Sequence record: FJ539134.1
Source: Qubevirus faecium
Direction: 5' to 3' (one strand)
DNA length: 4,273 bases
Shown: one piece after another, positions 1 to 4,273 of the stretch
Numbering within the stretch: the stretch's first letter is position 1
Layout: each line of letters opens with the position of its first letter
Translations under genes and position numbers: made by a program
Notes under the pieces: generated by a model
Database searches by the model: none
What the model was told of the DNA's origin: nothing
The model's input: the letters and a program-made list of their open reading frames with translations, nothing else

Positions 1-51
1 GGGGTAGGCCCCGTAAGGGGCCTGCCTTCACCGCACTACAGAGGAGAATCT
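1..51 (+). other. 5' UTR with terminal hairpin (stem 3-12 / 17-26, GUAA tetraloop 13-16); genome starts GGGG
   Basis: Direct pairing check: 12c-17g, 11c-18g, 10c-19g, 9c-20g, 8g-21c, 7g-22c, 6a-23t, 5u-24g (wobble), 4g-25c, 3g-26c. A 5'-terminal GGG(G) plus stable hairpin is typical of leviviruses. Confidence 0.7.
41..46 (+). promoter_or_regulatory. Shine-Dalgarno (GAGGAG) for the maturation protein gene
   Basis: GAGGAG lies 5 nt upstream of the ATG at 52-54. Confidence 0.7.
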
Positions 52-1404
52 ATGCCAACCCTTCCGAGAGGTCTTCGCTTCGGATCGAATGGCGAGGTCT
101 TAAATGACTTCGAGGCGCTCTGGTTTCCAGAGCGCCATACCGTCGATCTGAGCAATGGGACCTGCAAGCTCACTGGTTATATCACTAACCTGCCTGGCTA
201 CAGTAATATATTCCCGAATAAGGGAGTCACTGTTGCTCGTACGCCGTACAGAAGTACAGTGCCTGTTAACCATCTTGGTTACCGGCCCGTTACGACTGTT
301 GAGTACATTCCCGACGGCACCTACGTGCGCCTAGATGGGCACGTAAAGTTCGAAGGGGGCTTGGTTAATGGGTCAGTTGATCTCACGAATTACGTGATCT
401 CGTTAGCTGCTCAGGGTGGCTTCGATTACCAATCGGTAATCGGACCTAGGTTCTCTGCGCACTTCTCCGCGTTCAGCACCAAATATGGTGTCTTACTCGG
501 GGAAGGGAGAGAGACTCTTAAGTATCTTCTCCTGCTGCTTCGCAGAATGCGTGAAGGGTACCGCGCCGTAAGGCGTGGCGATCTCAAGCGCCTCAGGAAT
601 GTGATCTCTACGTTCGAGCCGACATCCTCTAAAGGGAGGAAGGCAAGATCTGAGTTCTCACAAACCTATCGCGACAAGCTTACCGGTAACAAGGTTGAAG
701 TTAAACCAAGTGAGGGTAAGTGGAATAGCAGTAGTGCGAGTGACCTGTGGTTAGAGTTCCGTTATGGGCTTATGCCGTTGTTCTACGACATTCAGTCCGT
801 GATGGAAGACTTCATGCGTGTCCATAAGAAGATCGCGAAAATACAGCGATTTTCTGCAGGGCACGGTAAGCTGGAGACGGTTAGTTCGCGGTTTTACCCG
901 GACGTCCACTTCGCTCTTGAGGTCACCGCAGTGTTACAGCGGCGTCATCGTTGGGGTGTCATATACCAGGATACTGGTTCTTATGCCACTTTTAACAATG
1001 GTCGTCTAGTCCCGGTGAAGGACTGGAAGACAGCGGCGTTTGCACTCCTTAATCCTGCCGAAGTTGCATGGGAGGTAACTCCTTACAGCTTCGTTGTGGA
1101 TTGGTTTGTAAATGTTGGGGATATGCTTGAGCAGATGGGCCAGCTTTATAGGCACGTCGATGTCGTTGACGGTTTCGACCGGAAGGACATAAAACTCAAG
1201 TCCGTATCCGTACGCGTCTTGACTGGCGACAGTGCGCACGTAGCTAAGTTTACTCTACGTCAAGCACGTTTGTTGCATAGTTATTATTCGCGCGTGCATA
1301 CCGTTGCGTTTCCGCAAATTTCACCACAACTCGATACTGAGATACGTAGCGTTAAGCACGTGATCGATAGTATCGCATTATTAACCCAGCGCGTTAAGCG
1401 CTGA
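52..1404 (+). CDS. A2: Maturation protein A2 (pilus attachment; in Qbeta-like phages also the lysis protein that inhibits MurA)
   Basis: 450-aa ORF, ATG start with upstream SD, TGA stop at 1402-1404. N-terminus MPTLPRGLRFG and many blocks (LWLEFRYGLMPLFYDI, TPYSFVVDWF, LLTQRVKR at the C-terminus) match my recollection of Qbeta A2. First gene in the genome, as expected. Confidence 0.93.
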   Translation: MPTLPRGLRFGSNGEVLNDFEALWFPERHTVDLSNGTCKLTGYITNLPGYSNIFPNKGVTVARTPYRSTVPVNHLGYRPVTTVEYIPDGTYVRLDGHVKFEGGLVNGSVDLTNYVISLAAQGGFDYQSVIGPRFSAHFSAFSTKYGVLLGEGRETLKYLLLLLRRMREGYRAVRRGDLKRLRNVISTFEPTSSKGRKARSEFSQTYRDKLTGNKVEVKPSEGKWNSSSASDLWLEFRYGLMPLFYDIQSVMEDFMRVHKKIAKIQRFSAGHGKLETVSSRFYPDVHFALEVTAVLQRRHRWGVIYQDTGSYATFNNGRLVPVKDWKTAAFALLNPAEVAWEVTPYSFVVDWFVNVGDMLEQMGQLYRHVDVVDGFDRKDIKLKSVSVRVLTGDSAHVAKFTLRQARLLHSYYSRVHTVAFPQISPQLDTEIRSVKHVIDSIALLTQRVKR

Positions 1405-2434: not shown

Positions 2435-2454
2435 TAGCATGTCAAAGACAGCTA
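2435..2454 (+). promoter_or_regulatory. Replicase translational operator hairpin (coat-protein binding site): stem UAGC/GCUA + UGUC/GACA, bulged A, AAA loop; contains the replicase AUG
   Basis: Seen directly: 2435-2438 uagc pairs with 2451-2454 gcua; 2439 a is unpaired (bulge, first base of the AUG); 2440-2443 uguc pairs with 2447-2450 gaca; loop 2444-2446 aaa. Same architecture as the Qbeta operator (8-bp stem, bulged A, 3-nt loop) as I recall it. Confidence 0.8.
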
Positions 2455-4169
2455 GTCGCAGAAGAGAAATTACTCAGCTATTGGGTAAGGTCGACATCAA
2501 CTTCGAAGACGACATCCACATGTCTATTGCCAACGACCTCTTTGAGGCCTACGGCATCCCGAAACTTCAGAATGCTGAGGAGTGCATTAACACCGCATTC
2601 CCAAGCCTTGATCAAGGCGCAGACACATTTCGTGTCGAGTATTTGCGCGCTGAGATCTTATCGAAGTTCGACGGGCACCCTCTAGGTACTGATACCGAAA
2701 AGACAGCATGGGAGAAATTCCTGGCTGCTGAAGAGGGTTGTAGACTTACGAACGAACGACTGTCGCAGGTTAAGTACCACGATAATTCCATTTTGTCGTG
2801 GGGCGAGCGTGTAATTCATACTGCTCGCCGAAAAATACTTAAACTAATTGGCGAGTCTGTGCCGTTCGGGGATGTGGCGTTGCGCTGCCGATTTTCTGGC
2901 GGTGCAACGACCTCGGTAAACCGTTTACACGGTCATCCGTCGTGGAAGCATGCCTGTCCGCAGGATGTTACCAAACGCGCATTCAAGTACCTGCAAGCCT
3001 TTAAACGGGCGTGCGGTGACGTTGTAGATTTACGCGTCAACGAGGTGCGCACTTCAAATAAAGCAGTCACTGTTCCGAAGAATAGTAAGACTGATCGCTG
3101 TATCGCCATCGAACCCGGTTGGAATATGTTTTTCCAGCTCGGTGTAGGTGCGGTGCTACGCGATAGGTTGCGTTTATGGAAGATTGACCTTAATGATCAG
3201 TCGACCAACCAACGCCTCGCGCGGGATGGGTCTCTGCTAAATCATTTAGCTACCATAGACTTATCCGCAGCCAGTGATTCGATCAGCTTAAAGCTAGTTG
3301 AATTGCTGCTCCCTCCTGAATGGTATGACCTTCTGACAGATCTCCGATCTGATGAAGGCGTTTTACCTGATGGACGAGTTGTGACCTATGAGAAAATATC
3401 CTCCATGGGAAATGGCTACACTTTCGAGCTTGAGTCGCTTATTTTCGCGGCGCTCGCAAGAAGTGTGTGTGAGTTACTAGAAATCGACCAATCTACTGTT
3501 AGCGTGTACGGGGATGATATAATCATCGACACTCGTGCCGCAGCTCCATTAATGGATGTCTTTGAATACGTTGGGTTCACGCCTAACAAAAAGAAGACGT
3601 TCTGCGATGGACCCTTCCGCGAATCGTGCGGTAAGCACTGGTTCCAAGGGGTAGATGTAACGCCCTTTTACATACGCCGACCAATTCGTTGCCTTGCTGA
3701 TATGATACTGGTTTTAAACAGTATCTACAGGTGGGGCACTGTTGATGGTGTATGGGATCCTAGAGCACTGACCGTGTACGAAAAGTATCTCAAGTTGCTG
3801 CCAAGAAATTGGCGACGCAACCGGATACCAGACGGCTACGGAGACGGAGCTCTCGTCGGATTGGCTACGACGAACCCGTTCGTTATAGTTAAGAATTATT
3901 CAAGACTATACCCGGTATTAGTTGAAGTCCAGAGGGACGTCAAGCGTAGCGAGGTAGGCAGTTATCTATATGCCTTACTCCGCGATCGCGAGACACGTTA
4001 TAGTCCTTTCCTGCGTGACGCAGATAGGACTGGGTTTGATGAAGCGCCGCTAGCTACTAGCCTTCGTCGCAAGACAGGTCGGTACAAAGTGGCGTGGATT
4101 CAGGACAGTGCCTTCATCCGGCCCCCGTATTTCATTACGGGCATTCCCGAGGTGAAGCTTGCAAGCTAG
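2439..4169 (+). CDS. rep: RNA-dependent RNA polymerase (replicase beta subunit)
   Basis: 576-aa ORF, ATG with SD, TAG stop at 4167-4169. YGDD catalytic motif at 3507-3518 (VSVYGDDIIID). Long blocks match Qbeta replicase from memory (CRFSGGATT, NKAVTVPKNSKTDRCIAIEPGWNMFFQLG, LATIDLSAASDSISL, VTYEKISSMGNGYTFELESLIFA, FRESCGKH, GVDVTPFYIR, IPDGYGDGALVG). Confidence 0.96.
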   Translation: MSKTASRRREITQLLGKVDINFEDDIHMSIANDLFEAYGIPKLQNAEECINTAFPSLDQGADTFRVEYLRAEILSKFDGHPLGTDTEKTAWEKFLAAEEGCRLTNERLSQVKYHDNSILSWGERVIHTARRKILKLIGESVPFGDVALRCRFSGGATTSVNRLHGHPSWKHACPQDVTKRAFKYLQAFKRACGDVVDLRVNEVRTSNKAVTVPKNSKTDRCIAIEPGWNMFFQLGVGAVLRDRLRLWKIDLNDQSTNQRLARDGSLLNHLATIDLSAASDSISLKLVELLLPPEWYDLLTDLRSDEGVLPDGRVVTYEKISSMGNGYTFELESLIFAALARSVCELLEIDQSTVSVYGDDIIIDTRAAAPLMDVFEYVGFTPNKKKTFCDGPFRESCGKHWFQGVDVTPFYIRRPIRCLADMILVLNSIYRWGTVDGVWDPRALTVYEKYLKLLPRNWRRNRIPDGYGDGALVGLATTNPFVIVKNYSRLYPVLVEVQRDVKRSEVGSYLYALLRDRETRYSPFLRDADRTGFDEAPLATSLRRKTGRYKVAWIQDSAFIRPPYFITGIPEVKLAS

Positions 4170-4208: not shown

Positions 4209-4210
4209 GA

Positions 4211-4228
4211 GAGGAGAAAGAAAGAAAA
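4211..4228 (+). other. 18-nt all-purine A-rich tract in the 3' UTR (gaggagaaagaaagaaaa); candidate host-factor (Hfq) binding region
   Basis: The uninterrupted purine run is seen directly. Hfq preference for A-rich / ARN-repeat RNA and its role as Qbeta host factor are established; binding at this exact site is inferred. Confidence 0.4.
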
Positions 4229-4239
4229 CTCCCCTCAGT

Positions 4240-4273
4240 GAGGGTGGGCTCTGCTTTGCCCACTCTCCTCCCA
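4240..4273 (+). other. 3'-terminal hairpin (stem 4240-4249 / 4258-4267, 8-nt loop UCUGCUUU) followed by the terminal ...CUCCCA
   Basis: Pairs 4249c-4258g, 4248g-4259c, 4247g-4260c, 4246g-4261c, 4245u-4262a, 4244g-4263c, 4243g-4264u (wobble), 4242g-4265c, 4241a-4266u, 4240g-4267c. The terminal CCCA matches the canonical levivirus 3' end, where the last A is added by the replicase. The 3' region closely resembles the Qbeta 3' terminus as I recall it. Confidence 0.7.

Follow-up and report, generated by a model that had tools for sequence, protein, structure and literature searches.

The window, a stretch of 4,273 nucleotides analyzed at its full length (FJ539134.1), represents Qubevirus faecium, an allolevivirus of genogroup IV, and spans the whole genome. 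It contains the maturation, coat/read-through, and replicase genes, begins with GGGG, ends with CCCA, and shares 95.1% identity with Enterobacteria phage FI strain BR8 over the full length (both 4273 nt), and is therefore complete. No record in the phage collection matches it exactly. Identity to the window is ~92% for SP, 80-83% for HB-P22, HB-P24, and NL95, and ~60% for Qbeta. The 5' UTR comprises 51 nt and holds, upstream of the maturation ORF, a hairpin at nt 1-28 (Table 1). The arms and loop of the hairpin, GGGGUAGGCCCC-GUAA-GGGGCCUGCCUU, are identical to those deposited for BR8 and HB-P22. Identity to HB-P22 extends over the first 54 nt, though it is only 82% genome-wide.

Table 1. Coordinates of the features discussed, numbered from the first nucleotide of the window
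Feature	Position (nt)	Strand	Basis or remark
5'-terminal hairpin of the genomic RNA	1-28 (5' arm 1-12, loop 13-16, 3' arm 17-28)	+	Folding; relatives
5'-terminal GGGG	1-4	+	Templates minus-strand 3'-CCCC; G1 and G2 pair weakly with U28 and U27
Internal wobble U5.G24	5-24	+	A.C mismatch in the minus-strand complement
GUAA tetraloop	13-16	+	GNRA by sequence; GNRA not kept in relatives
Minus-strand 3'-terminal hairpin AAGGCAGGCCCCUUACGGGGCCUACCCC plus nontemplated A	1-28	-	-17.6 kcal/mol, z -2.6
Shine-Dalgarno GAGGAG and AUG of the maturation gene	41-46 and 52-54	+	13 nt downstream of the hairpin, no overlap
Maturation gene ORF	52-1404	+	ORF list; BR8 annotation agrees
Coat gene	1424-1822, read-through extension to 2419	+	ORF list
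Replicase gene	2439-4169	+	ORF list
3' hairpin U1, loop UCUGCUUU	4240-4267	+	Rank 3 among plus-strand windows
Plus-strand 3'-terminal CCCA	4270-4273	+	Counterpart of minus-strand 3' CCCC(A)

The 10-bp GC-rich stem closed by GUAA that was originally predicted between nt 3 and 26 can be read pair by pair from the sequence. The outer pairs are G3-C26, G4-C25, U5.G24, A6-U23, and G7-C22, and the inner pairs are G8-C21, C9-G20, C10-G19, C11-G18, and C12-G17, giving eight G-C pairs, one A-U pair, and one internal U.G wobble (U5.G24) that the earlier description lacked. The loop, G13-U14-A15-A16, follows the pattern G-N-R-A and is closed by the Watson-Crick pair C12-G17. Extension of the stem by the two 5' G residues as G-U wobbles had also been proposed; G2.U27 is part of the minimum free energy (MFE) structure with a pair probability of 0.58-0.72, and G1.U28 is marginal, lying outside that structure at 0.21-0.23. 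Counted with G2.U27, the stem has 11 bp (8 G-C) and a 4-nt loop, starts at G2, and leaves G1 optional.

The MFE of nt 1-28 is -24.5 kcal/mol, compared with -12.6 +/- 2.8 kcal/mol in dinucleotide shuffles (z = -4.2; 0 of 200 as stable), and this segment is the most stable of all 4246 plus-strand 28-nt windows (mean, -4.3; standard deviation, 3.05). Core pairs retain probabilities of 0.75-1.0 in folding contexts of 200, 600, and 1200 nt, and the hairpin is unaffected when the first and last 120 nt of the genome are cofolded. An Rfam scan of the whole window (4227 covariance models, E <= 1) gave no match, which is a curation gap and no sign of novelty. The hairpin is an already known, textbook feature of RNA phages, and there is nothing new in the observation. 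A 5'-terminal hairpin has been described as universal among ssRNA phages, with a "suggested" role in replication (PMC3561173), and Stocsits et al. (2005) reported the same 5'-terminal GC-rich tetraloop hairpin in Levivirus and called its Qbeta counterpart "well known" (PMC1182351). Its presence at nt 1 confirms that the genome is complete with an intact 5' terminus.

Other stable hairpins occur within the maturation gene. A perfect 10-bp hairpin at nt 114-141, GGCGCUCUGG-UUU-CCAGAGCGCC, ranks second in stability among plus-strand 28-nt windows and first among those of the minus strand, and a second GUAA-capped hairpin of 7 bp, CCGCGCC-GUAA-GGCGUGG, lies at nt 561-578.

Comparison of allolevivirus 5' ends places a hairpin at the same position in the full-length relatives: it starts from nt 1-2 in 13 full-length Qubevirus 5' ends (the window, BR8, HB-P22, HB-P24, NL95, six Qbeta strains, MX1, and M11). 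Beyond the genus, stable hairpins lie at the 5' end or only a few nucleotides from it in MS2, PP7, AP205, and PRR1, with unrelated sequences. NL95 and a Logan contig missing a few bases at its start (L027) combine the stem of the window with an AUAA loop, and HB-P24 has AUAAA. The Qbeta hairpin is GGGGACCCCC-UUUA-GGGGGUCACCUC in Anc(P1), and the loop is CUUA in strains VK, BR12, TW18, HL4-9, and BZ1. In MX1 and M11 the hairpin is GGGUUCCCCCC-(C)GUA-GGGGGGUACUC, with loops GUA and CGUA. A partial hairpin, GCCC-CUUA-GGGC..., is present in L034, which represents a distant uncultured lineage with ~40% identity in the maturation protein.

MAFFT left hairpins of different lineages out of structural register, and a loop-anchored pair table was therefore used. 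In this table, pairs 1-4 outward from the loop are C-G throughout, and pairs 5-7 vary on both arms by lineage (G-C/C-G, G-C/A-U/C-G, and A-U/G-C/U-A, respectively). These two-sided changes support the structure but are weak as a statistic, because only three distinct stem types are represented and the register is ambiguous within C/G runs. Position and shape are thus conserved across the genus, and stem sequence and loop depend on lineage.

The best-described counterpart is that of Qbeta, which belongs to the same genus and also begins at nt 1 (GGGGACCCCC-UUUA-GGGGGUC in the model of Beekwilder et al. [1996], as relayed by PMC3561173). Both phages have a terminal G run, a GC-rich stem of 10-11 bp, and a 4-nt A/U-rich loop upstream of the maturation gene. 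They differ in the stem (ACCCCC/GGGGGU in Qbeta versus GGCCCC/GGGGCC in the window) and in the loop (UUUA/CUUA versus GUAA), and a bulged A in the 3' arm, together with almost equal stability of the hairpin on the plus and minus strands, is found only in Qbeta.

Two reference sequences depart from this pattern. Nucleotides 1-32 of the SP reference (L002, X07489 = NC_004301; also L003, GQ153933-34) read GGGGGUAGGGGGGAUAAAGGGGGCCUGCC, with GGGG at nt 10-13 where seven other genogroup IV 5' ends have CCCC. With this substitution the upper stem cannot form and a 14-nt G-rich loop is left, and the predicted stability is -14 to -16 kcal/mol, versus -23 to -27 kcal/mol in relatives. The SP 5' end may be a sequence error from 1988 that was copied into later records, and it is possibly worth resequencing; if it is instead accurate, a close relative manages without the complete hairpin. 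The GA reference (L022, NC_001426), GGUGGUUAGGAAUUUAGGGGGGGUUCCC... over nt 1-45, gave no terminal hairpin on folding, unlike MS2, PP7, AP205, and PRR1, and this exception could be either an old-sequence problem or genuine.

An 18-mer covering nt 6-23 of the window (AGGCCCCGTAAGGGGCCT) is also identical in Salmonella phage Jersey (L035, KF148055; nt 401-418) and >200 related phages. Homology with these double-stranded DNA phages was rejected, as the site lies 8 nt past the tailspike gene, between convergent genes; the match is a convergent terminator-type hairpin.

Complementarity of the 5' end had been expected to give the minus strand a C-rich 3' terminus mirroring the plus-strand CCCA, and this holds: the plus-strand 5' GGGG gives a minus-strand 3' CCCC(A). 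The plus-strand CCCA is itself present in 11 of 11 full-length relatives. Both strands of Qbeta bear 5'-GG and CCA-3', the 3' A being nontemplated, and Qbeta replicase initiates de novo with GTP opposite the penultimate C (PMC4200798). The termini of the window follow the same rule on both strands, with GGGG/CCCA on the plus strand and GGG/CCCC plus a nontemplated A on the minus strand.

The hairpin differs in strength between the two strands (-24.2 kcal/mol on the plus strand versus -17.6 kcal/mol on the minus strand, where two 3' C residues are unpaired). G1.U28, G2.U27, and U5.G24 become C.A mismatches in the complement, which makes the minus-strand hairpin ~7 kcal/mol weaker, and the location of wobbles near the base of the stem would leave the minus-strand 3' CC(A) unpaired and free for GTP-primed initiation. 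Asymmetry in the same direction is found in NL95, HB-P24, and MS2 (-21.5 versus -15.5 kcal/mol in the last); it is weak in Qbeta (-17.6 versus -17.0 kcal/mol) and absent in PP7 and PRR1, so that wobble-based freeing of the minus-strand 3' end is not universal. The MS2 hairpin (Emesvirus), GGGUGGGACCCC-UUUC-GGGGUCCUGCUC, has 12 bp with several G.U wobbles in the lower stem and resembles that of the window in its much weaker minus-strand complement with a free 3' end and in a CCUGC motif in the 3' arm. It differs in belonging to another genus, in its 129-nt 5' UTR, and in carrying a GNRA loop (GAAA) on the minus strand.

The minus strand also has a 5'-proximal hairpin of its own, the complement of U1, in 11 of 11 genomes (-15 to -23 kcal/mol); the UGCUU loop of U1 is conserved (PMC3561173). 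In the cofold of the genome ends, GAGG at nt 4211-4214 pairs with CCUC at nt 4265-4268, and the wider stretches at nt 4209-4216 and 4262-4269 (GAGAGGAG and CUCUCCUC) look fully complementary by eye. This pairing is consistent with the long-distance interaction ld IX, by which the 3' domain of all ssRNA phages is closed (PMC3561173).

Nucleotides 1-28 are the canonical 5'-terminal hairpin of ssRNA phages (Leviviricetes), probably acting mainly in RNA replication; for the genogroup IV phages, we infer this role. A hairpin with a short unpaired 5' region has been described as a replicase recognition element, "essential for recognition," with reference to Biebricher and Luce (PMC1182351). The hairpin would be the first structure to emerge on the nascent plus strand, and by forming a strong local fold quickly it would keep the growing strand off the template, such that the product is released single stranded. 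A small A/U-rich loop would offer few nucleation points for a loop-loop duplex. On each nascent strand the 5'-proximal hairpin would fold first and the 3' CC(C)A would stay accessible for the next round, and the unpaired minus-strand 3'-CC(A) would be available for de novo initiation with GTP. Priano, Kramer, and Mills in 1987 and Biebricher and Luce in 1993 reportedly proposed that the 5' hairpin folds first and that the strands are thereby kept apart. For replicons of genogroup IV, the resulting design would be a GC stem, a small A/U-rich loop, and lower-stem wobbles that free the minus-strand 3' end.

Small templates of Qbeta replicase (Biebricher and Luce 1992, 1993, as described in PMC1182351) resemble the window in having 5'-GG(G) in or next to a stem and an accessible 3'-CC(C)A on both complementary strands. 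The window differs from such small replicators in being the end of a 4.3-kb coding genome and in having its plus-strand 3' end embedded in a 3' domain. The templates of Biebricher and Luce are said to be noncoding replicators of 30-250 nt.

The hairpin could instead serve mainly to protect the genome from host RNA decay, with a paired triphosphorylated 5' end blocking RppH and RNase E. Both enzymes require single-stranded 5' termini, and 5'-terminal stem-loops stabilize Escherichia coli mRNAs (PMC3997798); the hairpin of the window starts from nt 1-2 and leaves no more than one or two 5' bases, weakly paired. The stem-loops of E. coli ompA and papA are likewise stable hairpins at the extreme triphosphorylated 5' end with almost no unpaired bases, but they are elements of cellular mRNAs without a role in replication. 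Protection as the main function nevertheless seems unlikely: it leaves unexplained the 5'-proximal hairpin found on every minus strand compared (11/11 genomes), a strand that is no long-lived mRNA, as well as the wobble-based asymmetry between plus and minus strands. It is compatible with a replication role as a second benefit rather than an alternative, and RppH and 5'-end-dependent RNase E are likely to act poorly on a base-paired triphosphate 5' end.

Participation of the hairpin in translational control of the maturation (A2) gene is considerably less plausible. The hairpin does lie within the 51-nt 5' UTR, 13 nt upstream of the Shine-Dalgarno sequence, and Beekwilder et al. (1996), in their work on the first three domains of Qbeta RNA as cited in PMC3561173, dealt with how A-protein synthesis is controlled within these 5' domains. 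The ribosome-binding site (nt 43-52) also pairs with nt 447-456 in the 600-nt fold. However, the hairpin overlaps neither the Shine-Dalgarno sequence nor the AUG and remains formed in every folding context, with the ribosome-binding site either paired or free, and the predicted partner of that site differs by subclade and is never nt 1-28. In the 600-nt fold, the ribosome-binding site and AUG of the maturation gene (nt 43-52) pair with UAGGUUCUCU, located ~400 nt downstream (nt 447-456). The best partner lies at +383-389 in the SP clade and FI, at +446-452 in the NL95 clade, and at +519 in HB-P22.

The UUUA loop given for Qbeta in the original prediction is present in AB971354. The accompanying suggestion that the tetraloop is lineage specific held with a refinement: the loop does vary by lineage, but the variation is finer than that and does not follow the tree. 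In a genome-wide neighbor-joining tree, GUAA occurs in the window and BR8 (SP clade) and in HB-P22 (NL95-side clade), and AUAA/AUAAA occurs in NL95, HB-P24, and L027 and, separately, in SP (AUAAA). Since each state is found in two subclades, the first loop base is homoplastic, with no fewer than two switches between G and A, and a loop so scattered on the tree indicates that the GNRA motif is no conserved functional element. GNRA identity was not kept among the homologous hairpins, whose other loops are AUAA, AUAAA, UUUA, CUUA, GUA, and CGUA. Loops of relatives are all 3-5 nt with 0-2 G/C and, placed in the window hairpin instead of GUAA, cost 0.8-1.3 of 24.5 kcal/mol in the nearest-neighbor model. 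The conserved trait is a GC stem that begins with the terminal G run and carries a small A/U-rich loop, and GUAA is an interchangeable, strain-level version of this small loop rather than a GNRA-specific element.

Special tetraloops also arise on the minus strand from complements of 5' hairpins, namely, GAAA in MS2 (nt 1-28) and C(UACG)G in M11 (L015, nt 1-26). Their occurrence on the other strand elsewhere points to general selection for a compact, stable hairpin and not for one motif. With Qbeta replicase, dead-end double-stranded RNA is seeded where loops of template and product touch; loops with few G/C avoid this, as found experimentally, and the natural genomes of bacterial ssRNA viruses obey the few-G/C loop rule (PMC4652763). 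The small A/U-rich loop of the window fits this rule, which presumably extends to GUAA.

These observations bear on a further explanation, in which GUAA is a true, lineage-specific GNRA tetraloop that docks in a helical receptor at another site of the genome or is read by the replicase, S1, or the maturation protein. Like the GNRA tetraloops of rRNA and group I/II introns, C(GUAA)G in the window fits the motif, with a C-G closing pair, and it recurs in four independent strains (the window, BR8, HB-P22, and L017). Conservation in close relatives is where the resemblance ends: the AUAA/AUAAA of sister strains cannot make the G.A sheared pair, the scattered G/A state needs at least two changes on the tree, and other lineages have UUUA, CUUA, GUA, or CGUA. 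The predicted energy gain is just 0.8-1.3 of 24.5 kcal/mol, and special tetraloops appear sporadically on the opposite strand (the minus strands of MS2 and M11, with GAAA and UACG). CCUAAG, the first half of the canonical 11-nt receptor, does not occur in the genome, a weak test because that receptor is specific for GAAA. A dedicated tetraloop function is accordingly very improbable, and the GNRA appearance of the loop should not be overinterpreted. It is similarly doubtful in the extreme that toggling between GUAA and AUAA(A) is nonneutral, altering how fast the hairpin folds, a contact (tertiary or with protein), or the balance of plus- and minus-strand synthesis; if it were, the terminal hairpin would have two functional states between which strains switch.

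That the terminal bases are a record artifact (primer derived or miscalled) and the hairpin not the true end is scarcely credible, even though the number of terminal G residues varies among records (4 in the window versus 5 in NL95 and SP, as deposited) and the first 54 nt match those of HB-P22 despite 82% genome-wide identity, since GUAA differs from the earlier NL95 and SP sequences and so does not derive from a primer designed on them, an independent metagenome strain (L017) has the loop and 3' arm, L027 independently has both arms with an AUAA loop, and the 5' arm is exactly as the 3' arm requires.

L017, from another strain (93.9% identity), was the one true relative recovered in a metagenome scan with a 19-mer. 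It independently shows the loop and 3' arm, CGUAAGGGGCCUGCC..., reading C-GUAA-GGGGCCUGCCUUCACC, and is a snap-back chimera upstream of window nt 12. A second candidate from the same scan, L018, was discarded as a chance bacterial match, and a scan of IMG/VR with a conserved UTR 21-mer returned the SP reference only. Protein-guided retrieval from Logan/ENA yielded nine contigs, almost all of which break off within the hairpin or immediately 3' of it; those informative for the hairpin were L027 (AUAA) and L034 (CUUA, partial) only, and the first bases of L030 and L031 are the Nextera mosaic-end adapter AGATGTGTATAAGAGACAG. Across L017 and L026-L034, nearly all assemblies of relatives stop in or just 3' of the hairpin, with L017 joined at window nt 12. 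The hairpin appears to prevent the recovery of true 5' ends in assemblies.

The Logan/ENA contigs include uncultured Qubevirus-like phages (P0008, P0011, P0012, and P0013; L030-L034) with 36-51% maturation-protein identity to the window. These phages carry genes for a read-through domain where the contig is long enough and fall outside the classical genogroups III and IV.
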